A stretch of DNA of 64,000 bases, taken from Betaproteobacteria bacterium. GTDB taxonomy: Bacteria; Pseudomonadota; Gammaproteobacteria; Burkholderiales; SG8-39. Below, piece by piece: positions 4,342 to 51,276 of this stretch. The translations under genes and the position numbers were made by a program. How positions within the stretch are numbered: position 1 is the stretch's first letter; every line of letters starts with the position of its first letter. The notes below the pieces were generated by a model that saw nothing but the letters and a program-made list of their open reading frames with translations, ran no database searches and had not been told where the DNA came from. The stretch covers positions 11,916 through 75,915 of the forward strand of contig SHXR01000007.1 in the NCBI GenBank assembly GCA_009693235.1, read 5' to 3'.

Positions 4342-4342
4342 A

Positions 4343-8046: not shown

Positions 8047-8057
8047 AGGGGCACATC

Positions 8058-10262: not shown

Positions 10263-10268
10263 CGAACC

Positions 10269-10908: not shown

Positions 10909-10927
10909 GGCGTTGCACCCTATCTTT
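10901..10927. terminator. hairpin between convergent genes (candidate bidirectional terminator)
   Basis: aaagataggg-cgttgca-ccctatcttt: 10-bp perfect stem, 7-nt loop, with A/T tracts forming the stem base. It overlaps the thioesterase stop codon. Confidence 0.5.
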
Positions 10928-11010
10928 GTGAAGAGGGAAGGTTGAAAGGTGATCCCCCTCTCCCCAGCCCGTTTCCCGTTTCACATCTCCCGTTTCACAG
11001 CTTCCAAGCG

Positions 11011-11789: not shown

Positions 11790-11905
11790 CCGCGTCTCCT
11801 CGTCCACGATGATCACGAACGATGGTAGCACCCACGCTACATCGACCCGTCCGCTCGGAGATATCCCACTATAATCGTCCACACCCCAGTGAGGAAAGCA
11901 TTGCA

Positions 11906-14667: not shown

Positions 14668-14684
14668 TTGGGGAGAGCGGCTGT

Positions 14685-35816: not shown

Positions 35817-36146
35817 GAATCTTCCTTTCCTAGTGAGCGAGTCGATTGGCAAGCTTACTTGCAATCTTCGCCCGAAGTTACTCGATCGGGCGAAAGCCGG
35901 GTTGACGCCGGGCAGGCGGATCGGGCGCGCCGGAAACTCTTGTGCGAGCGTGCGAAGAATGACGCCCAGGTTGTGCCCTGACGGTAGCGACCGCACTCGA
36001 ATCCGCGCGGGGCCTACAATCGCGGGCCTCAATGGATATCGATACGTCTTTTTCATTCGCCGCACGTAGTCGAATCGCGGCCCGTTCAAGTAAGAAACCA
36101 AGGAATCCACATTTGAACCAAAGCCATAGCAGCCACGATCATAGCG

Positions 36147-36590
36147 TTGACGCTGACCGGCTGCGCAACGACGCCCACCGAGACAACGGGCCGCGCGAAC
36201 GAAATGAAGCTCGCCTTCGATTTCACCGACGCCAATCCCGTCGCGCTATTGAACAAGCTGAACAACGTGGGCGTCACCCGCAAGCAACTGATTGAGAGCG
36301 GCGTCACGCCGAAAATCGTCATGACCTTTCGCGGCAATGCGTCGTTCTTTACGCAGACGGATCTCTCGGCGGTCAAGGAACCGGAGCGGGCCGACGCGCT
36401 CAGAGTCGCGGCAAAGTTGCGCGAATTGAAGAGTGCCCCGGGTGTTCAGGGGATCGAGCAATGCAATCTCCCGCTCGCGGACCGTAAGCTCAAACCCGCG
36501 GACCTGATGCAGGAAGTGAAGCTCGTCCCGAATGGCTGGATCGCGCTCGGTGCCTATCAGCAGCAGGGGTACGCGTACATCGCGCCCTGA
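36147..36590 (+). CDS. DsrE/DsrF-like family protein (signal peptide probably lost by a 5' frameshift)
   Basis: 147-aa ORF from TTG 36147. Upstream, TTG 36113 behind AAGGAA would give M-N-(K)AIAATIIALTLTGC, a perfect lipoprotein signal, if one C at 36118-36119 is removed. The body resembles DsrE-fold proteins. Confidence 0.6.
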   Translation: MTLTGCATTPTETTGRANEMKLAFDFTDANPVALLNKLNNVGVTRKQLIESGVTPKIVMTFRGNASFFTQTDLSAVKEPERADALRVAAKLRELKSAPGVQGIEQCNLPLADRKLKPADLMQEVKLVPNGWIALGAYQQQGYAYIAP

Positions 36591-36632
36591 ACGCGCGGGC
36601 ATAGCAAGCGATGTTCGACGGTCCGGAGCATC

Positions 36633-37631
36633 CTAATCAATCGATGCACCGGACGCCTTGATGATCGGCGCCCATTTCGCGAGTTCGCGCTTGACGAATT
36701 CAGCGAGCTTTTCCGGTGTGCTGCCTGGCGTCGGATCAACGCCCGCATCCTCGATCCGTTTGATCACATTGGGATCAGCCATCGCCTTGTCGATCGCTTG
36801 ACTCAATGCCTGCACGATCGCGGGCGATGTCTTGGCGGGCGCAAAGATCGCATTCCATGTGTAGCACTCGAACCCCGCGATCCCCTGCTCCTGCAACGTC
36901 GGCAATTCCGGTAGCGCACGCGCACGGCTCGCCATGCCTGCGCCAAGTGCGCGAATCTTGCCCGCCTTGAGTTGTGGCAGCACCGTCGGCAGCGCATCGA
37001 AACCGAACGTGAGCTGCCCACCGACCAGGTCGGCGATCATGGGCGCGGAGCCCTTGTAGGGAATGTGCGTGGCATCGAGCCCACCCGCCGTCGTCTTGAA
37101 TTGCTCGCCACACAGATGCAGGATCGAGCCCATCCCCGACGATCCAAAGCTATGTTTGCCTGGATTAGCCCTCAAGAGGGAGACCAGTGATTGCACGTCT
37201 TTCGCGGCCACCGAGGGGTGCACGGCCAGCACGGTCGGCGTGACACCGATCTGACTCACCGGCGCGAAGTCGCGCACCGGGTCATAGGGCATCTTCTTAT
37301 ACAGACCGGGATTGATCGCATGCGTCGAGACGGTTGCCATGAGCAACGTGTAGCCATCGGGCGCCGCTTCGGCGGCCATCGCGGCGCCGGTATTGCCGCC
37401 CGCGCCCGGTCTGTTCTCGACAACGAAGGTCTGGCCCATCAATTCAGAAAGCTTGGCGCTCATGATCCGTGCAACGATGTCGGTCGGGCCACCCGCGGAG
37501 AACGACACGATGATTCGCACCGGCTTTTCGGGATACTTGCCTTGGGCACTCACTGTTCCGCTTGTAACGGCCAAGCCGATCAATAGGCACGACAGCACCG
37601 GCGCTCGCAGTTCAATGCAAAGCTTCCACAT
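36633..37631 (-). CDS. Bug/TctC-family tripartite tricarboxylate transporter substrate-binding protein
   Basis: Intact 332-aa ORF. Signal peptide, then YPEKPVRIIVSFSAGGPTDIVARIMSAKLSELMGQTFVVENRPGAGGNTG. No tctA/tctB adjacent. Confidence 0.9.
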   Translation of the reverse strand: MWKLCIELRAPVLSCLLIGLAVTSGTVSAQGKYPEKPVRIIVSFSAGGPTDIVARIMSAKLSELMGQTFVVENRPGAGGNTGAAMAAEAAPDGYTLLMATVSTHAINPGLYKKMPYDPVRDFAPVSQIGVTPTVLAVHPSVAAKDVQSLVSLLRANPGKHSFGSSGMGSILHLCGEQFKTTAGGLDATHIPYKGSAPMIADLVGGQLTFGFDALPTVLPQLKAGKIRALGAGMASRARALPELPTLQEQGIAGFECYTWNAIFAPAKTSPAIVQALSQAIDKAMADPNVIKRIEDAGVDPTPGSTPEKLAEFVKRELAKWAPIIKASGASID

Positions 37632-37731
37632 GAGTCTCTCCCATCTCGCAGGGCCGTCATCTGCGGCGACGGCACGAGAGCAACGTACGCCGGTCGGGGC
37701 GGGGAGTCAAGGTGGGTGGGGAGGTACGCCT

Positions 37732-38262
37732 TTAGCGTGAATGAAGTTGCAATCGCCAACGCCGCAATCGCCTCTGTACTTCATCCTTCGGCAGCCGACA
37801 TCGCGGGTGGGCTTGAATCTTGTTCAAGCCCTCGACCAGCGCAGCGGATGAAACCCCTGCGGCATGCATTTGATCAAGCAACCAAAGCACCCCATGGACG
37901 ATGCCATTCCGCGCCCGCGCCTCCGCGCGAAGCGCTTTGTCGCCGCTCAGCAATACATGGTCTTTCCGCTGCGCACATGCGAGCGCGAAGTAATCGGCAA
38001 GAGAAAGCGCGGGCCGGCTACGCTTTACCTCCTGCGCGAGTAACAGCTCATCGGGCGAGAGTTCCACAACGCCCAGGCCGAGCGACCGCAAATAGGGCCC
38101 GTTCTCCGAAAGCAATTCCCGCTCGTACAGCAAGTCAGGCACGACCATCGTCCAGTTGCCTGAGAGTGCCGACTCCAAGAAGCCGCCACGCTCCAGGTCA
38201 ATCAAAATGGGTATCCTTCTCGCGCGGCATATAAAGCAAGAAACGCGAATCGAGCCCATCAA
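37732..38262 (-). CDS. PIN-domain protein (stand-alone)
   Basis: 176-aa ORF; TTG 38205 behind AGAAGGA is an alternative start. ILIDLERGGFLE...SLADYFALACAQRKDHVLLSGDKALRAEARARNGIVHGVLWLLDQM matches the PIN-fold pattern of acidic residues plus GvLWllD. No antitoxin-sized ORF upstream. Confidence 0.6.
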   Translation of the reverse strand: MMGSIRVSCFICRARRIPILIDLERGGFLESALSGNWTMVVPDLLYERELLSENGPYLRSLGLGVVELSPDELLLAQEVKRSRPALSLADYFALACAQRKDHVLLSGDKALRAEARARNGIVHGVLWLLDQMHAAGVSSAALVEGLNKIQAHPRCRLPKDEVQRRLRRWRLQLHSR

Positions 38263-38349
38263 TCCAGGGGATCAGACCGGGCTGCATACATTTCTGTCAG
38301 AAGTGGGCGCCCGTCGGAGCGATGTCTTCGAATCCGGCGCGATCTCCTG

Positions 38350-39546
38350 TCAGATCAGCAAACGGGCCGGGTTTTCGATCAGCGACTTCAGTGCATTAAG
38401 AAACCGCGCCGCAAGCACGCCATCGATCACCCGATGATCAGCGGTGAGTGTGACTCGCATCGCGTTGCGCTCGCGTGTGCTGGCGCCATCCCGATACAAC
38501 TCGCGATCGATCATGCCCACGGCAAGAATCGCGCATTGGGGTGGATTGATGATCGCGGAAAACGATTCGACGCCATGCATGCCAAGGTTCGATAGCGTGA
38601 ACGTGCCACCTTGATAGTCGACAGGTTGCAGCGTACCGGCACGCGCGAGCGCCGAGAGCTTGCCGATTGTGTCGGCAATGTCGATCAGAGACAGGGTATC
38701 GGCACGGCGCACGATGGGTGCGACAAGCCCATCGTCCAGTGCGATCGCAACACCGATGTCGATGTCATCATGCAGGCGAGTCGTTTCACCTTCAAATGTC
38801 GCATTAAGTTGTGGGCACGCACGTAACGCCAGTGCGCAGGCCCGGACCACAATATCGTTGATACTCACCTTCCGGTCTGGCAAGCCGTTGATCTGTGTGC
38901 GCGTCGACAGCATGGCATCGGCCACGATCTTGATCGTCACGACAAACGACGGAATGGATTGCGACGATTCCGTAAGCCGCCGCGCGATGGCTTTGCGCAT
39001 CGACGAGAGCGCCACGTCGCGCGTTGCTCCAGCGCCACCCGTACGAACGTTCTTGTTGCACCCACGCGCCGCGACCGCAGCGGAAACGTAGTTCGCAATA
39101 TCACGCTGGATGACCCTGCCCTCGGGACCGGTGCCCCGCACTTCTTCGATTGGCACGCCATTTTCTTGCGCGACTCTTCGCGCTCTTGGCGAGCTACGCA
39201 GGCGTTGATCGACAGGCATCGTAGCGAAGACCGGTCCAAGAACTTCAGCCGCTACGGCATTAATGCGCGGTGACGCGATACTTGCGGCGTCCTCGGTAGC
39301 CCTGGCGGGTGAATCGGTGAGCACGGCAAGCGCCTGCGCGACCCGCGCGTTGGTGCCCACCGGCACGAGAATGCTGCTGAGATAGCCGTCATCGGTCGCC
39401 TCGCAGTCAACAATCGATTTGTCCGTCTCGACACTGAAGAGCGGCGCACCCCGCTTGACGAATTCGCCCTCCGCGACGTGCCAACTGATCAAGAGCCCTT
39501 CTTCGATGGAAGGTCCAAGCACCGGCATGACTACGTTTTTTTGCAT
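38350..39546 (-). CDS. dihydrolipoamide acyltransferase (E2 component of a 2-oxoacid/acetoin-type dehydrogenase complex)
   Basis: 398-aa ORF. Lipoyl domain with VETDKS, E1/E3-binding domain (SSPRARRVAQENGVPIEEVRGTGPEGRVIQRDI), and a catalytic domain with DHRVIDG. Confidence 0.9.
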   Translation of the reverse strand: MQKNVVMPVLGPSIEEGLLISWHVAEGEFVKRGAPLFSVETDKSIVDCEATDDGYLSSILVPVGTNARVAQALAVLTDSPARATEDAASIASPRINAVAAEVLGPVFATMPVDQRLRSSPRARRVAQENGVPIEEVRGTGPEGRVIQRDIANYVSAAVAARGCNKNVRTGGAGATRDVALSSMRKAIARRLTESSQSIPSFVVTIKIVADAMLSTRTQINGLPDRKVSINDIVVRACALALRACPQLNATFEGETTRLHDDIDIGVAIALDDGLVAPIVRRADTLSLIDIADTIGKLSALARAGTLQPVDYQGGTFTLSNLGMHGVESFSAIINPPQCAILAVGMIDRELYRDGASTRERNAMRVTLTADHRVIDGVLAARFLNALKSLIENPARLLI

Positions 39547-39564
39547 GTCTGGCGTTCCCTCTGA

Positions 39565-40278
39565 TCAATCGCCCAAGTACGCTTTCACCATTCGTTCGTC
39601 GGACAAAAACGATTGCCATCCGCCAGGCACGATTTCATGGACGATTCTACCGAGCGCCATGACATACCCGCGGTCGGCAATCTCCGAAGCGATTCCGACA
39701 TTCTGCTCGACGAGAAGCAGGCTGATGCCGCGATCCCGCAGGCCGCGGATGACACCGAGAATCTCCTTCACGATCTTGGGTGCAAGACCGGTCGAGGGCT
39801 CATCCATGATGAGCAGATCAGGCTGCATGAGCAATGCCCGCGCGATCGCCACCATCTGCTGCTCGCCACCGCTCAATAGCTCGACGGCACTCGATTGGCG
39901 CTCAGCGATGATCGGAAACAAGCGGGTCACATCGGCCAGCGTGAAATTCACTTTGCCGCCTTGCCGGGCGTTCACTTCGGCCAGACGCAGATTCTCGCGT
40001 ACCGTCAGTTCGCCCCACAGGCGCCGATTCTCAAGGACCACCGCGATCCCGGTACGCATGCGTTCATGGGTGGGAACGCGCGTGACATCGAAGGCATCCT
40101 TGATGATGCGACCAGCGGTCGGCGCGATGAGGCCACACAAGGCGCGAACCAGCGTCGTTTTGCCGGCGCCGTTGGCGCCAACGAGTGCGACGATCTCGCC
40201 GTCGCCGATGCGAAAGGCAACATCGTGCAATACGGTCAACCGTCCGTAGCCGGCATCGAGTCCGCCGATCTCAAGCAT
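39565..40278 (-). CDS. ABC transporter ATP-binding protein (LivF-like)
   Basis: 237-aa ORF. Walker A GANGAGKTT, signature LSGGEQQM, Walker B LLIMDEPS. Confidence 0.9.
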   Translation of the reverse strand: MLEIGGLDAGYGRLTVLHDVAFRIGDGEIVALVGANGAGKTTLVRALCGLIAPTAGRIIKDAFDVTRVPTHERMRTGIAVVLENRRLWGELTVRENLRLAEVNARQGGKVNFTLADVTRLFPIIAERQSSAVELLSGGEQQMVAIARALLMQPDLLIMDEPSTGLAPKIVKEILGVIRGLRDRGISLLLVEQNVGIASEIADRGYVMALGRIVHEIVPGGWQSFLSDERMVKAYLGD

Positions 40279-40292
40279 GTCGATCGTCCCGT

Positions 40293-41051
40293 CTACATGC
40301 CAAGGTAGACCTCCCGCACGCGCGGATTGCGCTGCATTTCCGCCATCGGGCCGGACGCGATGATTTCGCCGAAGTAGAGGACATTGACCACCGAGGCGAT
40401 GTTCATGAGTTGCATGTCGTGGGAGACCAGGAGCAAGGTCATCCCCTCATCGTTGAACGTTTGCAGCCACTTGCCGAGTGCCTCGACCTCGGCGGTGTTC
40501 AGTCCCGAGGAGGGTTCGTCGAGCAGGAGTAATTGCGGCTTGCCTGCATACGCCCGCGCCAGTTCGAGCATGCGCCGTTGTCCGCTGGTGAGCTTGGCCG
40601 CCGGCACCTCACGCAACCGTTGGAGCCCGAAGCGTTCGATGACTGCCTCGGCCACCTCGCGCATCAACGCCAGGTCGCGGCGTGCGCGAGGAAGAGAGAG
40701 CATGTTGGACAGCGCGCCAGACCGCGTGAGTTTGCAGGCGCCCACCATGATGTTGTCCTGCACGCTCAAATGCTCGAAGACGCGCGGCGTTTGGAACGTT
40801 CGCACCATGCCGACGCGACTGCGTGCCTCGACACTCATTGCCCGGGTATCGTTGCCCGCCATCATCACCGATCCGGACTGCGGGACGAGAAAGCCATTGA
40901 GGATATTGAAAAGAGTGCTCTTTCCGGAGCCGTTCGGACCGATGAGGCCGACGATGCGCCCCGCCGGAACCTCGAACGACACATTGGTGAGCACGGTAAG
41001 ACCACCAAATGCGTGACCGATACCGCGCACATCGAGCGCGGGCGCAGTCAT
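40293..41051 (-). CDS. ABC transporter ATP-binding protein (LivG-like)
   Basis: 252-aa ORF. Walker A GPNGSGKST, signature LTSGQRRMLE, Walker B LLLLDEPSSG. ATGA overlap with the upstream permease gene. Confidence 0.9.
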   Translation of the reverse strand: MTAPALDVRGIGHAFGGLTVLTNVSFEVPAGRIVGLIGPNGSGKSTLFNILNGFLVPQSGSVMMAGNDTRAMSVEARSRVGMVRTFQTPRVFEHLSVQDNIMVGACKLTRSGALSNMLSLPRARRDLALMREVAEAVIERFGLQRLREVPAAKLTSGQRRMLELARAYAGKPQLLLLDEPSSGLNTAEVEALGKWLQTFNDEGMTLLLVSHDMQLMNIASVVNVLYFGEIIASGPMAEMQRNPRVREVYLGM

Positions 41052-42007
41052 TTGTTCGCCTCACCCGGCGTCGCGGTGGATTCGTCCAGCGCCCGCTTGC
41101 GCCACTGCCGGATGGTCCCGACGATGCCGTGGGGTGCCGCGATCACGACGACAATCAGAGCAAGCCCGAACACGATGCCGTGGAAGTCGCCAAGCTTGCT
41201 CAAGAGCTCAGGTACGAACGTGATGAAGAGCGCACCCACAACGACGCCTGGAATCGAGGCCGCACCACCCAGGACCGGAATCAGGAGAAAAAGAATCGCC
41301 TTGTCGATGGTAAAGCTCGCGACGCTCACATAGCCGGTGTAGTGGGCGAACAGGCTCCCCGACACGCCGCCCAGCACGGCGCAGACGACAAAAATAGTCA
41401 CCCGCAAACCATGCACGTCGATTGCCAGCACGCGGGCGGCATCGAGCGAGTCGCGCATGCCGCGCATGGCAAGGCCGGTGCGTCCGGCCACCAGATTGTG
41501 GACGAGCAGCATCGCGATCGCCGCAACGACCCATGCGAAGTAGTAGAACGTGAGCGGCGTATCAAGCACAAATCCGAACAGGCCGAGTTTGGGAATTGCG
41601 CCGATGCCGACCGTGCCGCCGGTAAGCCAGTCCCACTCGAAGAACAGCGCGTTGGCAATCATCGCAAGCGCGAGGGTTGCCACCGCCAGAAAGAAACCAG
41701 TAAGCCGCAGGACCGGCCAGCCGAGCGCGAGCGCAATCACGCCGCTTGCGATCATGCCAACAACAAATCCGAGCGATGCGGGTAGCTTGAGATTGACGGT
41801 GATGATCGCCGATGCATAGGCACCCATGGCATAAAACACCGATTGCGCGAGCGTCACGATGCCGCAATGACCTAGCAGCAGCCCCACCCCTAGCCCGGCG
41901 ATGGTGTAGATCGCGGCGAAGACCAGCAGGTCCACATGATGGCGCCCCAGCACCCATGGCAGTAGCGCCCACACCACAACAAGAACGATCAACCATGGCC
42001 GGCGCAT
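41048..42007 (-). CDS. branched-chain amino acid-type ABC permease (LivM-like)
   Basis: ORF 41048..42040. ATG 42005-42007 (MRRPWLIVLVVVWALL) behind GGGAGG is the likelier start, 4 nt after the LivH-like stop. Polytopic. Confidence 0.85.
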   Translation of the reverse strand: MRRPWLIVLVVVWALLPWVLGRHHVDLLVFAAIYTIAGLGVGLLLGHCGIVTLAQSVFYAMGAYASAIITVNLKLPASLGFVVGMIASGVIALALGWPVLRLTGFFLAVATLALAMIANALFFEWDWLTGGTVGIGAIPKLGLFGFVLDTPLTFYYFAWVVAAIAMLLVHNLVAGRTGLAMRGMRDSLDAARVLAIDVHGLRVTIFVVCAVLGGVSGSLFAHYTGYVSVASFTIDKAILFLLIPVLGGAASIPGVVVGALFITFVPELLSKLGDFHGIVFGLALIVVVIAAPHGIVGTIRQWRKRALDESTATPGEANK

Positions 42008-42011
42008 CCCC

Positions 42012-42899
42012 TCAACCTCCCTTGCGACCGCGGCGGCCAAGAATACCCTGCGGCACGAGGATCATGATCACGAGCAACACGCTGAAGGCCACCACGTCCT
42101 TGTAGGCCGACGCGATGAAAACAATCGCGAGCGATTCGACGAGGCCCAGAATGATCCCGCCGACGATCGCTCCCATCGGGTTGGTGAGTCCGCCGATCAT
42201 GGCCGCGCAGAATCCCTTCAACGTCAGGACCAGGCCCATGTAATAGCTGATCGGCACGATTGGCGCGACCAACAATCCGGCCAACGCGCCAAGCAGGCCG
42301 CCCATGCCATAGGTCGCGGTGCGCATCGCCGCCACATTGATGCCGGTGGTCGCCGCCCCATCGGCATCGATCGAGGCTGCCATCATCGCCAGGCCGAACG
42401 ATGTCTTGCGATAGAAGAATCGTAATGCCGCGACGATCGCCGCGCAGGCCACGATGACCCAGATCGCGTGATAGCGAATCGTGGCATCGAAGACGATGGC
42501 CACGCCGTCCGACCCGATCGAAGGCAGCGTGAAGTAGTCGCGACCGGCAAAGAACAACACACCCGCGGAAATGGCAAAGGCGATGCCGATGGTGAGCAGC
42601 AAAAATGCATCCTCATCGGCTTTGCGGCGAACCATCGGACGTACCAGGACTACGTCGACGACGATACCAAGCAAGATGCCGAACACCGCACCCGCGATGA
42701 ATGCGATCGGATATGAGAATCCCGCCGCCTTCATCGCGAATACCGCGACGACCGCACCGATGAGCGAGAACTCGCCCTGCGCGGCATTGATGACGCCGCT
42801 ACCTTTGTAGATCACGGCGATGCCCATGCCGATGAGGGCATAGATGACGCCGTTAGTAACGCCTGAAAGAATCGCCTGAACGACTAGGCTTGAGAACAT
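42012..42899 (-). CDS. branched-chain amino acid-type ABC permease (LivH-like)
   Basis: 295-aa ORF. The MFSSLVVQAILSGVTNGVIYALIGMGIAVIYKGSGVINAAQGEF N-terminus is typical of LivH. Confidence 0.9.
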   Translation of the reverse strand: MFSSLVVQAILSGVTNGVIYALIGMGIAVIYKGSGVINAAQGEFSLIGAVVAVFAMKAAGFSYPIAFIAGAVFGILLGIVVDVVLVRPMVRRKADEDAFLLLTIGIAFAISAGVLFFAGRDYFTLPSIGSDGVAIVFDATIRYHAIWVIVACAAIVAALRFFYRKTSFGLAMMAASIDADGAATTGINVAAMRTATYGMGGLLGALAGLLVAPIVPISYYMGLVLTLKGFCAAMIGGLTNPMGAIVGGIILGLVESLAIVFIASAYKDVVAFSVLLVIMILVPQGILGRRGRKGG

Positions 42900-42966
42900 T
42901 CGCTCGGCCGACCGCGATGAACGCCGCGAGCGGATTGCACGCGGCGTGCGCTGAATTGAGTCCGGG

Positions 42967-44136
42967 TTACTTTGACACGCGGAACGGCAGGCGCGTGTAC
43001 TGTCCTTTGATGAGCTTCGAGTACACGAAACTCGTGAGCTTCATGCCGGTGAGATCGGCATCGCGAAAATCGTAATCGGCCAGCACGCCCTTGTGCGGGC
43101 GGCGCAGCCATTCGCATATCTCGGCGGGCTTGGCATCAGCTGGCGTCGCCTTCAGTGCGGCCACCATGAACTGCACCAGGTCCCAGCCGGCGGCCTCGAA
43201 ATTCTTGGGCGTGAGGTTGTATTCCTTGCGATACATCTCCACGAATGCCTTTTGGTCGGGCAGCGGATCTTCGCCCACCAGGAATTCCGGAATGATCACG
43301 TTGTCCGCGCTCTCGCCCATCGCCTTCACATATTCGTACGATGACGACCCGATCGCCGCGATGACCGGCACCTCGATACGCACTTGTTTGACCGCGCGAA
43401 ACGGCGTACCTGACGTTGCGATCACCATGACGGCTTCGGGATTCGAGGCGCGCACCTTGGCCGCCTGGGTGGTCACGTCGGTCGCGCCGATTTCGAATTT
43501 TTCGATCGCGACAAACTCGATGCCCGGGTAGGACGACGAAATCGCTTTCAGAGCGCCCATCACGACGTTCCCGTATCCGGAATCGTGGAGCACACCCACC
43601 CGTTTGATCTTCATGGCATTGGCGGCGTATTCCATCAATGCGCGGGCATTGAGGTCCTGCGGCGGCAGGACGTGATACACGCACTTGCGATCGCGCTCGA
43701 CGGGAACGGAAAGCCCGGCCGGAACGATGTGCGGCAGCTTGAGCGGATCGGTAATGGCGCCGGCCGCGACGATCTGTGCCACTTGCGATGGCCCGATGAG
43801 GCCGACCACCTTCTCGTTGTGCACAAGAGCATTGGCCTTGGTGCGCGCATTGTCTGGGTTGCTCGCATCGTCCTCGATGATCACCTTGATCGGGCGACCA
43901 CGGACACCACCCGCCGCGTTCACCGCCTTCTCGGCGAGCAGCACGCCGTTTCGAGTCGGCACGCCAAGGCCAGCTCCAGGGCCGGTGATCGCAAGAATCG
44001 CGCCGATCTTGATCGGTTCACCAGTCGCTTGTTGAGCATGCGATGGCGTATGAGTGAATAGGGTCGTGGTGAACAGAGCGCAAACTGCTGACACAGCCAG
44101 TGCACGTGCGGGCGTGCCCATCCATCGTCTTGCCAT
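42967..44136 (-). CDS. Liv-type ABC substrate-binding protein
   Basis: 389-aa ORF. Signal peptide ending HAQQ, then IKIGAILAITGPGAGLGVPTRNGVLLAEKAVNAAGGVRGRPIKVIIEDD. First gene of the transporter operon. Confidence 0.9.
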   Translation of the reverse strand: MARRWMGTPARALAVSAVCALFTTTLFTHTPSHAQQATGEPIKIGAILAITGPGAGLGVPTRNGVLLAEKAVNAAGGVRGRPIKVIIEDDASNPDNARTKANALVHNEKVVGLIGPSQVAQIVAAGAITDPLKLPHIVPAGLSVPVERDRKCVYHVLPPQDLNARALMEYAANAMKIKRVGVLHDSGYGNVVMGALKAISSSYPGIEFVAIEKFEIGATDVTTQAAKVRASNPEAVMVIATSGTPFRAVKQVRIEVPVIAAIGSSSYEYVKAMGESADNVIIPEFLVGEDPLPDQKAFVEMYRKEYNLTPKNFEAAGWDLVQFMVAALKATPADAKPAEICEWLRRPHKGVLADYDFRDADLTGMKLTSFVYSKLIKGQYTRLPFRVSK

Positions 44137-44165
44137 GTTGGTCTCCTCCAGCGGGGTATATTCGT

Positions 44166-44181
44166 TATGCTATATAGCATA
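44166..44181. promoter_or_regulatory. perfect 16-bp palindrome (candidate operator) in a divergent promoter region
   Basis: TATGCTATATAGCATA. The first half is the exact reverse complement of the second. It sits in the AT-rich centre of the 81-bp gap between the ABC/E2 operon (-) and the dehydrogenase/cupin/E1 operon (+). Confidence 0.6.
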
Positions 44182-44217
44182 GTTCCGTATCCCAACGTCC
44201 CAACGCTGGAGGTCAAC

Positions 44218-45102
44218 ATGAAAGCGCGCATCGGCATTCTCGGACTCGGAAAGATCGGACGCGCCGCCGGCGAGAATCTGCTCAAGGAAGGTTATCCGGT
44301 GGCGGCCGTGCGCCGTCCAAGCACCGAGGATTTCATTAAGTCGGGCGGAACGCTCGTCGATACGCCCGCGGAACTTGCACGAGATTCCGAGCTGGTCATC
44401 TCGTGCCTGCCAAGCATCGCGTCGATGCATGAAGCATTCGAGGCCCCAAATGGACTCATCGCCGGCGCGCATGATCGCCTCGCCGTGCTCGAGATGGGCA
44501 CGTTCTCGGCAGCGCTCAAGACCGAGCTTGCCAACGGACTGCGCGCCAAGGGCACGCCCATGCTAGACAGCCCGATCAGCGGCACGCCCTCGATGGTGGC
44601 CAACAAAGTGGGAGTTCTTTTCATCAGCGGCGACAAGGCGGTCGCCGAACGCTGGAGCGAAGCGATCAACGCATTTGCGCCGAAGAATTTCCATGTGGGT
44701 GCGTTCGGCTGCGGCATGGCGATCAAGCTCGCCACTAATTTCATCGTGGGCGCCAACAGCCTTGCGGTCGCCGAGGGGTTCGCGTTCGGCATCCGCGCCG
44801 GGCTCGACCCCGAGCTGATGATCAAGGTGATGGGGCCAAGCGCCGCCGGTTCGCGTGTATTCGATTTTCGCGCACCGATGATCGCGCAACGCAAATTCCG
44901 CCCGGCACCCGGGCCTGCACATGTGCTCTGGAAGGATCTTCAACTCGTGAAAGAAGAAAGCGAGCGCTTGGGTCTTGCCGCACCGATCCTGAAGACGCAG
45001 CTTGAATGGTTCGGGAAAATGATGGACGGCGGAAGAGAGGATGATGAGTGCGCCGCGGTATTCGAAGTTCTTATGGAAGCTTCGGAGCCTGGGAGCATGT
45101 AG
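44218..45102 (+). CDS. NAD(P)-dependent oxidoreductase, 3-hydroxyisobutyrate/6-phosphogluconate dehydrogenase-like
   Basis: ATG 44218 behind GGAGG. MKARIGILGLGKIGRAAGENLLKEGYPV (Rossmann fold) ...GCGMAIKLATNFIVG. Confidence 0.8.
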   Translation: MKARIGILGLGKIGRAAGENLLKEGYPVAAVRRPSTEDFIKSGGTLVDTPAELARDSELVISCLPSIASMHEAFEAPNGLIAGAHDRLAVLEMGTFSAALKTELANGLRAKGTPMLDSPISGTPSMVANKVGVLFISGDKAVAERWSEAINAFAPKNFHVGAFGCGMAIKLATNFIVGANSLAVAEGFAFGIRAGLDPELMIKVMGPSAAGSRVFDFRAPMIAQRKFRPAPGPAHVLWKDLQLVKEESERLGLAAPILKTQLEWFGKMMDGGREDDECAAVFEVLMEASEPGSM

Positions 45103-45142
45103 CAGCGGAGTTCAACGACATGTAGCAGCGTGGTTCAACGTC
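45097..45142 (+). repeat. 23-bp imperfect tandem direct repeat spanning a stop codon
   Basis: atgtagcagcggagttcaacgac followed by atgtagcagcgtggttcaacgtc (20 of 23 identical). Copy 1 contains the TAG stop of the dehydrogenase gene (45100-45102). Copy 2 ends 16 nt before the cupin ATG. Confidence 0.8.
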
Positions 45143-45158
45143 AACCGGAGGAGCGATC

Positions 45159-45755
45159 ATGGAAAGCAAGCACTACAGCCCGGCCGAAATGGAAGAAAAA
45201 TGCATCGTGCGCTTCAAGAATCTGAAGTACATGGGTGCGGGCGAGAAGAAAAAGGAAGGACCGATTTCACCCGAGGTCTACAAGATGCTGGCGGCCCCCG
45301 CGTTCGCCATCACCGCCCCGGAATTCGACAATGGTCCATGGGGCGAGGCACGCGTGAAGGTGCCGGACTACGTGAACATCATCGCTGAACTGCCCCCGGG
45401 CGGTGGCGTGCCGCTGCATATGCATGCAAAGACCATCGAAACCTTCATGGCGCTCACCGGCAAATGGAAACTGCAGTGGGGTGACAAGGGCGAATACGAG
45501 ACCATTCTCGAACCGTTCGACACCTTCGCGGTGCCGGCAGCGGTAAGCCGCCGGTTCGAAAACGTCGGCACCGAGAAAGCCTATCTGCTGGTGCTCATCT
45601 CGGGTGGCACCCACGATATGGACGACTTGATCTTTGCACCGAGCGTAGGTAAGGCCATCGAAGACAAGTTCGGCAAGACCACCCGCGAACATGTTGAGAA
45701 GGTCGGATTCAAATTCACCGCCGGCATCTCGGGACAGCATGCGCACATGAAGTAG
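45159..45755 (+). CDS. cupin domain protein (metal-binding HxH...E motif), paralog of 48094..48669
   Basis: 198-aa ORF behind GGAGGAG. Motif LPPGGGVPLHMHAKTIETFMALTGKWKLQWGD. Collinear similarity to the cupin at 48094..48669 along the whole length. Confidence 0.75.
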   Translation: MESKHYSPAEMEEKCIVRFKNLKYMGAGEKKKEGPISPEVYKMLAAPAFAITAPEFDNGPWGEARVKVPDYVNIIAELPPGGGVPLHMHAKTIETFMALTGKWKLQWGDKGEYETILEPFDTFAVPAAVSRRFENVGTEKAYLLVLISGGTHDMDDLIFAPSVGKAIEDKFGKTTREHVEKVGFKFTAGISGQHAHMK

Positions 45756-45839
45756 CGGAAGTCGCCGCATCTTGATCGTCCTTCGCCTTCGCTGGGCCAA
45801 CGCCCGCGAAGGCAACCCCGCATTGCGAGGAAGCGTCGC

Positions 45840-47831
45840 ATGAACATGGAAACCAATCGAGCAAGCCTGATGCCCGCGGCAACGCTCACGCGGCTGTACA
45901 CGACCATGCTGCGCATTCGCCTTTTCGAGGAGAAAGTGCGCGAGCTGTTTCAGGCTGGGATCGTGAAGGGGACGGCCCACAGCTACGCGGGACAGGAGGC
46001 AATCGCCGCCGGGGTGTGCTTCCATCTGCGCAAGGACGACTACATCGGCAGCTATCACCGCGGCCACGGTCATTGCATCGCCAAAGGCGCGCGCATGGAC
46101 CAGATGCTCGCCGAATTGATGGGCAAAGCATCAGGCTATTGCGGCGGGATGGGCGGCTCGATGCATGTGGCCGATCTCGATCTCAACATTCTCGGTGCGA
46201 ACGGCATTGTCGGGGCCACCATGCCGCTTGGCCTGGGTGCCGCGCTCGCAAGCAAGATGCGTGCAACGGATCAGGTCACGATCGCGTTTTTCGGGGACGG
46301 TGCTTCGAACCAAGGCGTATTCCATGAAGCGATGAATCTTGCGGCGGTATGGAAGCTGCCGATGATCTTCGTCTGCGAGAACAATCAATGGGCGCTCAAT
46401 ACGTCGATCCATAGCACGACCTCGGTCGAGCGGATCGCGACGCGTGCAACCGCTTACGGCGTTCCAGGCGTGACCGTCGATGGCAACGATGCGATCGCCG
46501 TGCATGACGTGGCGGGCGAAGCGATCGCCAGGGCGCGCGCCGGCAACGGTCCAACGCTCATCGAAGCGATGACTTGGCGCCATACGCAGCACAGCCTGCG
46601 CGTCAATCTGCCCGATCCACGCACGCAGGCCGACATGGATGAGTGGTTCGCGCGCGATCCGATCGGCCGTTTCGAACGCTGGGCAGCGGGTAATAGTGAC
46701 GCGTCGGGCCGGTTCGGTGTCGTTCGGCAGGAAGCCGAGGCCGAACTCGCGGCGGCCGTGGCGTTTGGGCAGGCTGGGGATGAGCCGACCGTGAGCCAGA
46801 TGATGGCCGCGGTCTATGGCCCCCATCTTGCGCATCACGAGCCGGGCCCGGTCGGCACGCGCAATCTCACCATGGCAGAAGCACTCAACGAAGCGCTGCA
46901 TCAGGAGATGGAGCGTGATGCGAGCGTGTTCGTGATGGGCGAAGATGTCGGCGCAACCGGCGGCCTCTTCCAGGTTTCCAAAGGACTCGCAGACCGCTTC
47001 GGTGAAGCGCGGGTTCGCGATACGCCGATTTCGGAAGCGACATTCTGCGGCGCAGGAGTCGGTGCCGCGATAGCTGGAATGCGACCGGTGGTGGAGGTGC
47101 AGATCTTCGATTTCGTAACGCAGATGATGGACATGATCGTCAACCAAGCCGCCAAGTTCCGGTTCATGCTGGGCGGCCGACCGAATGTTCCGTTTGTCAT
47201 TCGTGGTCCGCAGGGCGGCGGCATCCGCCTCGCCGCGCAACATAGCCAGAGCCTTGAGAGCTGGTTTACCCACATTCCCGGCTTGGTCGTGATCGCGCCT
47301 TCGACACCGTACGACGCGAAGGGCCTTCTTACCGCGGCGATTCGGGACAACAACCCGGTCGTGTTTCTGGAGCACAAGCTGCTTTATCACGGTGCGAGCG
47401 GTCCAGTCCCGACAGAACCCTATGCGATTCCAATCGGCAAGGCGGACGTTAAACGTGCCGGCACGGACGTGACGATCGTTGCGACGCAAATCATGGTGGC
47501 GCGCGCACTCGCGGCCGCCGCGAAGCTTGAGATCGAAGGGGTGAGTGTTGAGGTGATCGATCCGCGTACACTGCGGCCGCTCGACGAGGAAACCATTCTT
47601 GCTTCGGTGAGGAAGACCGGTCGACTCATTGTTGTTCATGAAGCGGTGCGAAGCGGCGGGTTTGGTGCCGAAGTCGCTGCGATTGTCATCGAGAAGGCCT
47701 TCGACTGGCTTGATGCACCGGTCGTTCGAATCGGTGCACCGGACGTTCCGATGCCATTCAATCCGGATCTCGAGCTTGCAGTGATTCCTTCGCAGCAGAT
47801 GATCGAAGAAGCGATCCGCAGGATCGCGTAG
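45840..47831 (+). CDS. thiamine-diphosphate-dependent 2-oxoacid dehydrogenase E1 component, fused alpha/beta subunits
   Basis: Single 663-aa ORF. The alpha-like half has the TPP motif GDGASNQGVFHEAMNLAAVWKLPMIFVCENNQWA. The beta-like half starts near NLTMAEALNEALHQEMERDASVFVMGEDVG and ends with the transketolase C-terminal-like region. Confidence 0.9.
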   Translation: MNMETNRASLMPAATLTRLYTTMLRIRLFEEKVRELFQAGIVKGTAHSYAGQEAIAAGVCFHLRKDDYIGSYHRGHGHCIAKGARMDQMLAELMGKASGYCGGMGGSMHVADLDLNILGANGIVGATMPLGLGAALASKMRATDQVTIAFFGDGASNQGVFHEAMNLAAVWKLPMIFVCENNQWALNTSIHSTTSVERIATRATAYGVPGVTVDGNDAIAVHDVAGEAIARARAGNGPTLIEAMTWRHTQHSLRVNLPDPRTQADMDEWFARDPIGRFERWAAGNSDASGRFGVVRQEAEAELAAAVAFGQAGDEPTVSQMMAAVYGPHLAHHEPGPVGTRNLTMAEALNEALHQEMERDASVFVMGEDVGATGGLFQVSKGLADRFGEARVRDTPISEATFCGAGVGAAIAGMRPVVEVQIFDFVTQMMDMIVNQAAKFRFMLGGRPNVPFVIRGPQGGGIRLAAQHSQSLESWFTHIPGLVVIAPSTPYDAKGLLTAAIRDNNPVVFLEHKLLYHGASGPVPTEPYAIPIGKADVKRAGTDVTIVATQIMVARALAAAAKLEIEGVSVEVIDPRTLRPLDEETILASVRKTGRLIVVHEAVRSGGFGAEVAAIVIEKAFDWLDAPVVRIGAPDVPMPFNPDLELAVIPSQQMIEEAIRRIA

Positions 47832-48093
47832 TCAATTCAGCTCGCTGCGAGCGGACGCCTCGCATTTTAGGTGTCAAGCGGGGCCAGTCGTCGGGAGCCA
47901 AATCCAAACGATGCGCCATTCAGCGCTCAAAACAACGTTGATGCATCGCGCCAGAACCCGTCACTTGCCTGATTGCGGGCATGACGCCGTCAATCTGGAT
48001 GCAGCCGGGGCAGATAAGCCTGCATGATGCGTAGATGATTTACGGCGCGACAGCTAATACATCAGGCTGGCGGCGCACGGGTGTGGCGCTGCG

Positions 48094-48669
48094 CTATTTT
48101 CGCGGCGGATCAAAGTGAAACACCTTGCCGAATGCCTCGCGCACCTTGGCGCCGTGTTCACGCTCCACTCGTTCGGCGATCGAATGCGGCATCGATACAT
48201 CATCGCGGCCATCATTGAGTCCGGTCAACACGGTGAGTTGTACCGCGTCGGTGGTGCCGACGTTGCGAAAGCCGCGATAGACCCTGGGCGGGCAGGAGAA
48301 AACGTCCCATTGATCGAGCGTGATGTGATGGGCGATCGGCTCGCCGATGTGATATTCGATTCGCCCTTGCAGCACCATGAAGGTCTCGAACGTATCGTTG
48401 TGCGAATGCAGGCACGGGCCTTGTCCGGGCGGCAAAATGGAGATGAACATCGTCGTGCGCGCCGCACCGAAAATAGGCGCTTCGGTCCCGAATGGATTCT
48501 TGGTGTCATCCAGAATCACCGGCATGAGCTGGCGCGCGAAGATGATATCGATGGCCTCTTGTGGCACCCAGGTAAGATCTTTCGTCGCCGTGGTCATCTG
48601 CTTCAACTGACTGAAACGGCTTACGCGCCGATCGAGTTCTTCGCGGGTTGGGGTGTAGATGTCTTTCAT
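48094..48669 (-). CDS. cupin domain protein (metal-binding HxH...E motif), paralog of 45159..45755
   Basis: 191-aa ORF behind AGGAGG. Motif LPPGQGPCLHSHNDTFETFMVLQGRIEYHIGE. Confidence 0.75.
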   Translation of the reverse strand: MKDIYTPTREELDRRVSRFSQLKQMTTATKDLTWVPQEAIDIIFARQLMPVILDDTKNPFGTEAPIFGAARTTMFISILPPGQGPCLHSHNDTFETFMVLQGRIEYHIGEPIAHHITLDQWDVFSCPPRVYRGFRNVGTTDAVQLTVLTGLNDGRDDVSMPHSIAERVEREHGAKVREAFGKVFHFDPPRK

Positions 48670-48684
48670 GACGCCTCCTATTAT

Positions 48685-48783
48685 CTAAGGAAACGCTGAT
48701 TAAGCTATCTCGCGTAATCAGCGTGACCATAATTTTCGGGGAGTTACGAGGGGGCGAACCCCCTTGTTCAGTTATTCCCTAAG
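48685..48783 (+). repeat. dual-hairpin intergenic repeat, full copy A (reference copy, 99 bp)
   Basis: ctaaggaaACGCTGATTAagctatctcgcgTAATCAGCGTgaccataattttcggggagttACGAGGGGGcgaaCCCCCTTGTtcagttattccctaag. Hairpin 1 is a 10-bp perfect stem. Hairpin 2 is a G5/C5 stem. TA lies at both borders, with imperfect inverted ends GGAAACGCTG / CAGTTATTCC. Confidence 0.9.
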
Positions 48784-48922
48784 CCTTCTGGAAACTGTAA
48801 GCCCGGATTGCCTCGCGGTCAACGCAGGATGCGCTAAACGGATAAGCTCTTCATCGTAGGCCGGTCACGGATCGCTTCGACCGAACCACGAACCTTGTCG
48901 GATTCCAATAATAAGGGGAGAC

Positions 48923-50047
48923 ATGAACGAGACCGAATACGAGATGACGCAACCGGAACGCTCGACGCAATGCCTCGACTGCAGCGGCACGCATGCGTCT
49001 GCTACGTTCGGCGCCAGGCGGCACTTTCTGAAGGCGCTTGGTGGCTTCGGTGCTGCAGCCGCGTTGCCGGCCTGCACAGCGCTCGACTCGGGGCCGCGCC
49101 AGAAGCTCATCGACACGCATCATCATTTTTATGCCCCGGCGTATTAGGATGCCTGGCTAGCTTGGGACAAGCAGCGCAACATTCCGCACACCCCATTGCA
49201 GGGCAGTTGGACGGTCCGGCAGGCCGTTGAAGAGTTGGATGAGGGCGGGGCCGGCACAGCGATTCTGTCGCTCGCCTCGACGCCGGGACTGTGGTTCAAC
49301 TTGCCCGCGGCGGAGGTCTCGAAGATGGCGAGGACATGCAACGAGTTCGCCGCGAATATGGTGCGCGATCACCCCGGACGCTTCGGCCTCTTCGCCACGC
49401 TCTCGATGCTCGACATCGACACGACTTTGAAGGAAATCGAGTACGTCCTCGATACGCTGAAGGCGGACGGCGTCGGGCTGCAAACCAACTACGGGGACAA
49501 ATGGCCCGGCGACAAACTCTATCAACCGGTATGGGAAGAATTGAATCGCCGCAAAACAATCGTCTACTTCCATCCGCTGGTGGCGGCGTGTTGCGGCAAC
49601 CTGGCGGTGGGGACCTTCCCCGATGTGATCGAGGTACCGCACGACACGACGCGGGCGGTCACGAGCCTGCTCCTCTCCGGAACATTCGCCCGCAACCGCA
49701 ACATCCGCTGGATCTTCTCGCATGCGGGTGGAACGATCCCGATGCTCGCCGGCCGCATCGGCGCGTTTGCCCGCATGCGGAAAGACCTCGCCCAATTCGC
49801 ACCCGATGGCGTGGACAATGAGCTGCGGCGGCTGCACTACGACACCGCCAATGCCTTGCACCCGTCATCCATGGCGTCCCTGCTGAAGCTCGTTCCGGAC
49901 TCACAGGTGACGTTCGGGTCGGACTATCCATACTTTCGGGTGGGTACGCAGGGGAGCGCATTGCAGCAGCTCGGGCTCGGTTCCTCGCAAGTACGCGCAA
50001 TCGAGCGAGGCAACGCCGAGCGGCTGATCCCGCGACTCAAGGCATAA
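48923..50047 (+). pseudogene. amidohydrolase-2 (ACMSD/metal-dependent hydrolase) family protein with Tat-like signal, interrupted by an in-frame TAG
   Basis: ORF 48923..49147 (RRHFLKALGGFGAAAALPA...LIDTHHHFYAPAY-TAG) and ORF 49196..50047 are in the same frame. The codon after the TAG at 49145-49147 continues [13 protein letters not shown]...IVYFHPL...HAGGTIP...FGSDYPY. Confidence 0.85.
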
Positions 50048-50057
50048 CCACCACAGC

Positions 50058-50085
50058 GGCCGCCCCGGGACCGGCCGGGGCGGCC
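50058..50085 (+). terminator. GC-rich hairpin after the amidohydrolase pseudogene
   Basis: ggccgccccgg-gaccgg-ccggggcggcc: 11-bp perfect stem 10 nt after the stop. Only a short TT follows, so the U-tract is weak. Confidence 0.45.
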
Positions 50086-50292
50086 TTCAATCAGCGAACT
50101 TCGACATCGATACCGGAACCCGTCAACGCCTTTGCCGTGTGCGTGATGGCGTTGCGGTGATCACGGCACGAAAAAAGGCATATCGGTCGCCGACTGCATC
50201 GCGCACCTTCAGATAAACCCGCACACGCTCACCGGCGATCGCGTCGCTGCGCTGCGAACGCATCGGACCGGTTCGCAAGAGCAAGCGACAGG

Positions 50293-51276
50293 TTATTGCC
50301 GTTCGATATTCTTCACTTCCACGATGCGCTTCCAGCGCACGATGTCGCGTTCGACGCGCGCACGCATCTCAGCAGAAGAGATATGCGCCGGTACGCCACC
50401 GAACTCCGCGAATCGCCGCTCGATCTCAGGCAGCGCCAAAACGGCTCGCAACTCGCGACTGATGCGATCGATGATGGCAGGCGGTGTTGCGGGCGAGGCC
50501 ATCAGACCTTGCCACGATATCAGTTCGATCTCGCGCAACGTCTCGGCTACCGGTGGAATCTCGGGCAACAACGCATAGCGGCGTGCGGCGGTAATGCCAA
50601 GTGGACGCAGCTTGCCACTGCGAATCGGATTGCCGGCAAAGGTCGTGGTTGCGAGCATCACATCCACGCGCCCGGCGATCACTTCGACAAACGCGAGCGC
50701 CTCACCCTTGAAGGGCACGTGAATCATGTTCGTGCCGGCTTCCATATTCAGCCACTCGCCCAGCAGGTGGTGAATGCTGCCGATGCCGGGCGAGCCATAA
50801 CTGATCCGGCCGGGTGCCGCCTTCGCGCGGGCAATGAGATCGGCAAACGACTTGATCGGCGATTCCGGCACCACCCCGATCACCATCGGATAAGCGATAA
50901 CGGTGCTGATCCACGCGAAGTCGTTGACCGGGTCGTAGGGCAACTTCTTCATAATCGCAGCGGTACTCGCATGGCCGCCACTCAGAAGCCCGAGTGTGTA
51001 GCCGTCCGGCGGCGACTTCACCACCGCGTCGTTGGCGATAAGGCCCGTACCGCCTGGACGCGCCTCGACGATGATTGGCTGCCCAAGCCGCTCGCCAAGA
51101 TGCTGGCCGATCAGGCGCGCGACGATGTCGGCCGTGCTGCCACCCGCGAAACCAATGAGGAGGCGAATCGGGCGGTAGGGATAGTCCTGGGCAAATGCGC
51201 ATGGGGCCGCGACCATTGCCAGACAAGCGATTGCCCAAGACAACCCACGATGAATGAAGCCGGCCGCGCGCGTCAT
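50293..51276 (-). CDS. Bug/TctC-family tripartite tricarboxylate transporter substrate-binding protein
   Basis: Intact 327-aa ORF. Signal peptide, then [48 protein letters not shown]. Its start overlaps the cysK stop in ATGA. Confidence 0.9.

Follow-up and report, generated by a model that had tools for sequence, protein, structure and literature searches.

Acetoin dehydrogenase, encoded by acoABCL in Bacillus and by operons of the acoXABC type in Cupriavidus, is the closest described system to the locus analysed here. The locus lies in a 64,000-nucleotide stretch of a betaproteobacterial contig (SHXR01000007.1, positions 11,916 to 75,915; hereafter the window), and comprises genes for an ATP-binding cassette (ABC) importer, a beta-hydroxyacid dehydrogenase, a cupin, and the E1 and E2 components of a 2-oxoacid dehydrogenase-like complex. 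By sequence scores, its E1 appears to group with Aco-type E1s, and, as in the acetoin system, its lipoyl-bearing E2 would give acyl-CoA; furthermore, relatives of the locus carry a short-chain dehydrogenase/reductase (SDR) or an acetolactate synthase-like (ALS-like) enzyme nearby. The E3 component (lipoamide dehydrogenase) is often not encoded in aco operons, and a local E3 is often missing in general, lpd genes being commonly shared. In contrast to the acetoin system, the two E1 halves of the locus are fused into one chain of 663 amino acids (aa), genes for a HIBADH-family enzyme and a cupin precede the E1 gene, and neither AcoR nor AcoX is encoded. Moreover, the E2 is canonical and ends a divergent ABC-importer operon, whereas acoA, acoB and acoC share one operon, and the substrate is probably a charged carboxylate. 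With its E2 in the divergent operon and not of the AcoC type, the locus falls outside the aco systems in both operon structure and E2.

The heterotetrameric pyruvate dehydrogenase (PDH; PdhA/PdhB/PdhC) of mitochondria and Alphaproteobacteria shares the domain content of the E1 and E2, and is, among solved structures, the system to which the E2 of the locus is most similar. However, the locus falls below every PDH equivalog cut-off, has a fused E1 and lacks an E3, while its setting in catabolic islands and its patchy distribution over metagenome-assembled genomes (MAGs) do not suit a housekeeping complex. Nor is its E1 closest to BkdA1/BkdA2, as would be expected of a branched-chain 2-oxoacid dehydrogenase (BCKDH). 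A thematic analogue is the gcl-hyi-glxR/garR module, in which a thiamine diphosphate (ThDP) dependent carboligase is combined with an isomerase and a tartronate semialdehyde reductase of the HIBADH family; the HIBADH-family enzyme of the locus has GarR/GlxR as its top match. The ThDP enzyme of the locus, however, is an E1 rather than Gcl, its candidate isomerase is a cupin rather than the TIM-barrel Hyi, and it has an importer and an E2 as well.

In Streptomyces, the PDH-like ThDP and lipoyl-acyltransferase modules QncN, QncL and QncM produce a glycolicacyl unit from a ketose phosphate, with non-standard domain fusions and an alpha-hydroxy-ketone instead of a simple 2-oxo acid as donor (PMC6335953). 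Set side by side by description, the Qnc system fuses E1 beta to E2, transfers the acyl group to an acyl carrier protein and is biosynthetic, whereas the locus would transfer it to CoA and would be catabolic. The E1-E2 chemistry and the E1 fusion are already known; the organisation of the locus and the partnership with a cupin are new. As the preliminary description of the locus had stated, the layout is unlike that of any characterised PDH, 2-oxoglutarate dehydrogenase, BCKDH or aco operon. A literature search found no paper on the cassette, the fused E1 proteins, the cupin family, or a cupin combined with acetoin dehydrogenase.

A conserved cassette of two divergent operons

The genes at window positions 38350-48008 form a real, conserved cassette of 9.7 kb, whose hosts are uncultured freshwater and soil Burkholderiales. 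On balance, we favour the reading that it is a catabolic cassette for an imported carboxylate other than an amino acid, with a pathway that in outline would end in acyl-CoA. Gene content, catalytic motifs and the conserved arrangement were read directly from the sequences; the chemistry and the substrate are proposed from homology and gene context. The conserved unit consists of an E2-LivFGMH-binding protein operon, transcribed leftward, and a divergent HIBADH-cupin-E1 operon, transcribed rightward. A list of the open reading frames (ORFs), together with scans against Pfam and NCBIfam, reproduced the ten genes, the 81-bp divergent region, the 663-aa fused E1, the full E2 and the two paralogous cupins of the preliminary description.

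The cassette was also found in at least 13 other metagenomic loci, whose flanks are unrelated. The unit is complete in L001, L005, L012-L017 and L048; partial contigs keep at least cupin-E1 (L007) or at least HIBADH-cupin-E1 (L006, L049 and L019, the latter an Acetobacteraceae MAG). Of the fourteen loci counted with HIBADH-cupin-E1, all 10 that are long enough to show both ends keep the divergent operon from binding protein through LivHMGF to E2. Compared with the window proteins, the E1 is 70-95% and the cupin 75-97% identical across the cassette loci. The two genes are co-conserved across these loci and overlap by 4 bp in several of them; loci of the L005 type have the start codon of E1 overlapping the stop codon of the cupin gene. 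The closest loci, L012 and L013, share about 81% DNA identity with the window and align only over 38352-48008. Flanking genes are unrelated across loci and include an O-antigen ligase, a TRAP transporter and TctABC; in L013, the scanned flanks encode an O-antigen ligase, a heptosyltransferase and an ADC-like protein. When the complete locus was searched against plasmid DNA by megablast, no match was returned.

The genome-context search shows the arrangement to be conserved elsewhere, and not a chance juxtaposition. It is highly improbable that there is no single pathway here, and that an importer operon with a stray E2 happens to abut an unrelated dehydrogenase-cupin-E1 operon. The placement of E2 apart from E1, its faster divergence and its GC content at third codon positions (0.66, the lowest in the cassette, against 0.71-0.78 for the other genes) would suit such an origin, as would the loci, described below, that hold importer, HIBADH and cupin genes but neither E1 nor E2. 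Yet the block from E2 to E1 stays intact in the 10 loci showing both ends while its surroundings change, and an E1 without E2, or an E2 without E1, would be useless alone in the block.

Several cassette loci carry accessory genes. In L001, an ALS-like ThDP enzyme follows E1. In L005-type loci, an SDR follows E1, and an HsaA-like flavin monooxygenase and a small VOC protein follow E2. The gene beside E2 in L005 that had been read as an acyl-CoA dehydrogenase (ACAD) was dropped as such, because NCBIfam groups it with HsaA-type flavin monooxygenases. A second type of locus, which we call type B, is of the Comamonadaceae type (L008 at 2373-15265, L009 and L018) and consists of one 12-gene operon without E1 or E2. 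It encodes a Baeyer-Villiger monooxygenase (BVMO), an MhpD-like hydratase, an LldD-like FMN dehydrogenase, a short-chain ACAD, an acyl-CoA ligase, HIBADH, a cupin, and the binding protein with LivHMGF. The cupin of L008 is 80% identical to cupin 1 of the window, and in L008 and L009 the operon is preceded by an IclR gene. Type B may represent another way from an oxidised acid to acyl-CoA, which fits a role of E1 and E2 as an exchangeable end module.

The two operons of the window diverge from a short control region. The true start of the HIBADH-like gene is the ATG at 44218, preceded by GGAGG, so that the intergenic region at 44137-44217 measures 81 bp. It contains a perfect 16-bp palindrome, TATGCTATATAGCATA, at 44166-44181, which is unique in the 64-kb window, with no second copy. 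Of the related loci, only the nearest two, L012 and L013, share the palindrome core TGCTATATAGCA; more distant ones do not. The palindrome is a likely candidate for an operator, whose regulator would be encoded elsewhere. A search of the 81-bp region for a consensus sigma-70 promoter gave no match, and an Rfam scan of 36000-51000 gave no riboswitch or other family match. The rightward operon ends in a terminator-like hairpin followed by TTTT (47846-47864, forward strand), 15 bp past the E1 stop codon.

According to the ORF scans of the window, the cassette indeed lacks both an E3 and a regulator, as had been noted before. No E3 was present among the ten scanned window ORFs of at least 409 aa, and no regulator gene occurs between 36.6 and 52 kb of the window. 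An ORF of 107 aa at 33163-33486 (reverse strand) weakly matches the C-terminal end of Pyr_redox_2 (E=6e-4); it is maybe a gene fragment, and not a usable E3.

The E1 and E2 components

The fused E1 (45840-47831, forward strand) is a ThDP-dependent protein with matches to E1_dh (257 bits), Transket_pyr (151 bits) and Transketolase_C (141 bits). Its alpha half, at residues ~1-330, carries the ThDP motif GDGASNQG...ENNQWA, with the spacing GDG(X)~26NN, and its beta half, at ~340-663, consists of the pyrimidine-binding and C-terminal transketolase-like domains. An identical copy is present in a Betaproteobacteria MAG. The fusion had been considered unusual, but it belongs to a very large and already annotated family: more than 7800 fused-E1 homologues were scored, many of them ~70% identical, from Alpha-, Beta- and Gammaproteobacteria and SAR324, and NCBI names them 'dehydrogenase E1 component subunit alpha/beta'.

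We compared the alpha and beta halves separately with the E1 classes, using phmmer bit scores on one scale. The E1 pair of an acoXABC-like operon of Aminobacter, whose E2 is annotated as 'acetoin dehydrogenase', scored 310 bits (alpha) and 377 bits (beta), and the pair of an acoABCL-like operon of Priestia scored 302 and 413 bits. The best solved PDH chains reached 187 and 321 bits, and BCKDH chains were lowest among the E1 classes, with 109 and 248 bits. The E1 halves are 46-58% identical to the Aminobacter and Priestia pairs, operons that bear the Aco label by annotation. The E1 misses the equivalog cut-offs of TIGR03182 (321 against 393.85 bits) and PRK11892 (399.5 against 454 bits), and its beta half passes the subfamily model PRK09212 (407 bits, cut-off 321). 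Based on the phmmer scores and the missed PDH equivalog cut-offs, the E1 is best described as acetoin-dehydrogenase-like, closer to the Aco type than to PDH or BCKDH. To call it unrelated to acetoin dehydrogenase would be too strong, since by sequence it groups with E1s of that type.

The E2 (38350-39546, reverse strand; 398 aa), identified from Pfam matches and motifs, is encoded by the last gene of the leftward operon. It has three domains, Biotin_lipoyl, E3_binding and 2-oxoacid_dh (254 bits), and its translation contains the lipoyl site SVETDKS and the catalytic sequence TADHRVIDG, with the DHRxxDG pattern. Among solved structures, the nearest is the mitochondrial-type PDH E2 (260 bits), although the protein scores below the PDH E2 equivalog cut-off (TIGR01349, 362 against 445 bits). 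The AcoC model NF011457 gave 70 bits against a cut-off of 307, with the lipoyl part only. Judged by these domains and scores, the E2 is of the canonical three-domain type and not of the AcoC type.

These comparisons bear on an alternative that we consider unlikely, namely that the locus is a dehydrogenase system for acetoin, 2,3-butanediol or a close analogue with an odd gene order, in which the fused E1 and the E2 would be the equivalents of AcoAB and AcoC and the downstream SDR of the relatives would be a butanediol dehydrogenase. The E1 halves do score higher against the aco-like operons of Aminobacter and Priestia than against any PDH or BCKDH, but the Aco label of these operons stems from annotation and not from experiment. 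An SDR follows E1 in L005- and L006-type loci, with NCBIfam matches that include meso-2,3-butanediol dehydrogenase (152 bits, cut-off 270), yet neither the window nor its nearest relatives have the SDR. The ALS-like ThDP enzyme that follows E1 in L001 and a LysR-E1-E2-SDR-VOC cluster on a Fuscovulum plasmid agree with this alternative as well. However, as a neutral compound acetoin does not require an ABC importer of the Liv type, and the HIBADH-like enzyme and the cupin, which are always in the cassette, have no role in acetoin cleavage. Furthermore, an AcoR-type regulator is lacking and the E2 is not of the AcoC type (70 against 307 bits).

Fused E1 genes also occur in other surroundings. 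At L002 10001-13715, the E1 gene lies directly upstream of genes for a PRK06154-type 'thiamine pyrophosphate-requiring protein' (864 bits) and a GntR regulator, and L004 10001-11995 is a second locus with an orphan fused E1. On plasmid pRsa of Fuscovulum blasticum (L044 219-5898), a LysR gene is followed by a fused E1 (60% identical), an E2, an SDR annotated as 'glucose 1-dehydrogenase' and a VOC protein, with a TauE/SafE sulfite-exporter gene 1.2 kb farther along. This host is cultured, and pRsa would lend itself to work on a fused E1 together with the E2 that belongs to it.

The cupin, the importer and the dehydrogenase

Cupin 1 (45159-45755, forward strand; 198 aa) is the rare and unusual component of the cassette, and its family is uncharacterised. 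It matches Cupin_2 (PF07883) with 43.9 bits (cut-off 27.2) and contains cupin motif 1, G(X)5HXH(X)3-4E(X)6G, as PLHMHAKTIETF. In the alignment of the family, H87, H89 and E94 (HxHx4E) are invariant. The second cupin motif, H(X)3N, is altered: an invariant arginine (R131-x-F-x-N135) replaces the fourth metal-ligand histidine in 13 of the 13 aligned members, including the second cupin of the window. An AlphaFold2 (AF2) model shows a cupin barrel (pLDDT 77), for which Foldseek searches of the PDB returned generic cupins only (TM about 0.35-0.43). By sequence, the top match among solved structures was quercetinase YxaG (E=0.004), with no specific structural neighbour. Readings of the cupin as a dimethylsulfoniopropionate (DMSP) lyase of the DddK/Q/W type or as a thiol dioxygenase were set aside. 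Those cupins have HxHx3ExY or 3-His sites, whereas the family has HxHx4ExF plus the arginine, and the importer type and habitat do not fit either.

Relatives of cupin 1 are few. A word-based search of 5.8 billion proteins yielded 21, and a full hidden Markov model search of 1.84 billion cluster representatives yielded 69 at E<=1e-30. Among 57 cupin loci from genome and metagenome collections, two came from isolates (an Alcaligenaceae strain and a weak Geodermatophilus match) and the rest from MAGs or metagenome contigs. Where the cupin is at least 75% identical, the HIBADH-like gene lies immediately upstream in all loci with the upstream flank present, and a Liv-type importer adjoins wherever the contig extends far enough. 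Cupins of lower similarity (35-43% identity) occur, in genomes of 37-71% GC, in three other arrangements: esterase, cupin, TctC and an ALS-like ThDP enzyme in this order; an ALS-like ThDP enzyme divergent from cupin and TctC; and FMN_dh-SDR-cupin-TctC.

Single-linkage clustering of 63 cupin sequences at 70% identity gave 14 groups, three of which (49 of the 63 sequences) include members beside a ThDP enzyme, while a periplasmic binding protein lies within 5 kb in seven of the 14. Three cupin subfamilies with a mutual identity of at most 45% each adjoin a ThDP enzyme (the fused E1 or ALS-like) and a carboxylate-binding protein (TctC or Liv-type). The pairing of cupin and E1 that had been put forward thus stands in a broader form, in which the family goes with carboxylate uptake and ThDP chemistry; the tightest partners of the cupin are the HIBADH-like gene and the importer, not the E1.

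Among the family members, P0142 and P0144, of ~390 aa with two matched stretches, are tandem bicupin versions of the 198-aa protein. Low-GC (37-41%) freshwater loci (L055 6337-13902, and also L059, L060, L062 and L066) hold up to three separate cupin-TctC gene pairs together with an Abhydrolase_3 esterase and an ALS-like ThDP enzyme, so that the combination of binding protein and cupin is a repeated design there. A 660-aa gene beside a 35% identical cupin (L030), suspected to be a second fused E1, proved to encode a CHASE3-GGDEF-EAL protein.

The importer genes are all on the reverse strand. The first gene of the leftward operon encodes a periplasmic solute-binding protein of the HAAT/Liv family (42967-44136; Peripla_BP_6, 170 bits). 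It is followed by LivH-like (42012-42899) and LivM-like (41048-42040) permeases, both with BPD_transp_2, and by LivG-like (40293-41051; ABC_tran and BCA_ABC_TP_C) and LivF-like (39565-40278; ABC_tran) ATPases; for the latter, the top NCBIfam match, LivF, scored 206 bits, which is below the cut-off. In an approximate alignment with Escherichia coli LivJ/LivK (24% identity), residues Y18, S79, T102, Y202 and E226 fall opposite L, V, L, I/A and I, respectively. We take these five, counted on the alignment, to be the residues with which LivJ holds the amino-acid moiety. The LivJ-type model NF011933 gave 68 bits against 477. The PDB neighbours of the binding protein comprise an amino-acid binder and binding proteins of Rhodopseudomonas palustris, all near E=1e-24.

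Homologues of the binding protein at 55-61% identity provide context. Those with ~60% identity lie in conserved clusters that encode TetR, a VOC protein, an HsaA-like monooxygenase, the binding protein with LivHMGF and a HIBADH-like enzyme (L073 7420-15401; L074 7124-14626), with no cupin and no E1 or E2. Their proteins are orthologous to those of the cassette loci (ABC components 57-69%, HIBADH 55% and VOC 58-62% identical). For a homologue with 55% identity, the importer genes diverge from genes for a CoA ligase, a hydrolase and an enoyl-CoA hydratase. Because the LivJ residues are not kept, and because of the gene contexts of these homologues, the imported ligand is probably a carboxylic acid outside the proteinogenic amino acids. 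A hydroxy or keto acid, as proposed earlier, is still the most sensible class of substrate. The importer with the HIBADH module looks older and more widespread than the addition of cupin, E1 and E2, with the L073/L074 type looking ancestral.

It is distinctly improbable that the locus combines branched-chain amino-acid uptake with a paralogous branched-chain or pyruvate 2-oxoacid dehydrogenase. Names given by the Joint Genome Institute ('2-oxoisovalerate dehydrogenase E1 component' and 'branched-chain amino acid transport system') would imply such a combination, and so would the Liv-family top matches in Pfam and NCBIfam and the PRK09212 score of the E1 beta half (407 against 321 bits). In contrast, all equivalog cut-offs were missed (TIGR03182, PRK11892, TIGR01349 and the LivJ-type binding protein), BCKDH is the most distant E1 class, the cassette encodes no aminotransferase or amino-acid dehydrogenase, and the binding protein lacks the residues with which LivJ holds amino acids.

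The HIBADH-family (beta-hydroxyacid) dehydrogenase/reductase (44218-45102, forward strand; 294 aa) combines NAD_binding_2 and NAD_binding_11 domains and has kept the catalytic lysine. Its top match is tartronate semialdehyde reductase, at 152.9 bits against a cut-off of 397, and it matches PDB 1vpd with 1e-39. In the Rossmann fold of NAD-dependent HIBADH members, an aspartate marks the cofactor specificity. At the position of this residue in 1vpd, the enzyme has the sequence VRRPS, and the presence of Val-Arg-Arg in place of Asp suggests a preference for NADP(H).

The proposed pathway and the genes around the cassette

We propose that window positions 38350-48008 are a self-contained, horizontally mobile catabolic cassette of two divergent operons with one control region, working as follows. 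The Liv-type binding protein and the LivHMGF-like ABC transporter would take up a carboxylic acid other than the standard alpha-amino acids. The HIBADH-family enzyme would interconvert a beta-hydroxy and a beta-oxo (aldehyde or ketone) function. The cupin, with a predicted metal site of His87, His89 and Glu94 and with Arg131 placed for a carboxylate, may then rearrange or decarboxylate the oxo-acid to a 2-oxo acid or an alpha-hydroxy-ketone. This could be an aldose-ketose-type shift from a 2-hydroxy-3-oxo acid to a 3-hydroxy-2-oxo acid, or the decarboxylation of a beta-oxo acid to an alpha-hydroxy-ketone. The acetoin-dehydrogenase-like E1 would cleave the product with ThDP and pass the acyl group to the lipoyl arm of E2, after which E2 would release acyl-CoA and an E3 encoded elsewhere would re-oxidise the lipoamide. 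The data do not fix the order of the dehydrogenase, cupin and E1 steps; the HIBADH-like enzyme, with its apparent preference for NADP(H), could instead reduce an aldehyde formed by acetoin-type cleavage. A tropic-acid-type route (beta-hydroxy acid dehydrogenase plus decarboxylase) was kept as an analogy only; the literature search returned nothing on it.

Several observations weigh against this pathway. The E2 is most like the acetyl-transferring PDH E2, which is little informative on the acyl group. It is also only 47-50% identical between locus types, compared with 72-88% for the other cassette proteins (window 38350-39546 against L001 2375-3565 and L005 2416-3681), and this fast divergence could reflect relaxed constraint, faster evolution or a partial replacement of E2. 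In L002 and L004, fused E1s of ~70% identity lack an E2 gene within 10 kb, so the E1 may not always act in a complex. With the fourth histidine absent and only generic structural matches, the catalytic role of the cupin is assumed. Finally, the cupin family, the E1 subclade and the binding-protein clade are without any characterised member, and nearly all loci are from MAGs.

A wider proposal is more tentative, and we regard it as possible but rather doubtful. The 198-aa HxHx4E/Arg cupins might be an enzyme family that prepares imported carboxylates for ThDP-dependent C-C cleavage, for instance by isomerising or decarboxylating hydroxy-oxo acids. The cassette would then be one among several modular solutions (E1/E2, ALS-like decarboxylase, or BVMO plus ligase) for a common freshwater or soil organic acid, carried almost only by uncultured Burkholderiales and Alphaproteobacteria.

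If the favoured reading of the cassette is true, a pathway served first by an ABC importer, a beta-hydroxyacid dehydrogenase and a rare cupin whose metal site is altered has taken on an E1-E2 pair of the acetoin/PDH type for its final step. This would provide a first functional handle on the cupin family and one physiological context for the huge, annotated but unstudied family of fused 'E1 alpha/beta' proteins, and the cassette would indicate a carboxylate that uncultured Burkholderiales of fresh water and soil use. No principle would be overturned: catabolic islands without an assigned substrate are frequent, and neither a missing E3 nor a fused E1 is out of the ordinary.

Cupin 2 (48094-48669, reverse strand; 191 aa) is a paralogue of cupin 1 (30% identity, E=6e-22), converges on E1 and had been counted with the cassette. 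The limits of synteny, the terminator-like hairpin between it and E1, its own promoter-like site at 48822-48794 and its absence elsewhere indicate that the unit runs from E2 to E1, and that cupin 2 is a passenger that merely neighbours it. No other cassette locus, L012 and L013 included, carries cupin 2 or the PIN-like ORF on the other side of the cassette. The closest relatives of cupin 2, in L072 (79%) and L040 (58%), lie in other contexts, the former near TctC genes. The ORF that had been named a PIN protein is present at 37732-38262, outside the conserved unit and outside the region that the preliminary description covered (38350-48669); the PIN assignment itself is sub-threshold (19.1 bits, E=0.002, against a Pfam cut-off of 23.6).

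Further genes of the window lie near cupin 2 or are unrelated to the cassette. An Amidohydro_2 gene (49196-50047, forward strand) lies ~0.5 kb from the start of cupin 2 and is transcribed away from it, with a TctC gene next to it (50293-51276). An 810-aa protein with BACON_2 domains (55536-57968) and a 147-aa DsrE-like protein (36147-36590) are unrelated to the cassette.

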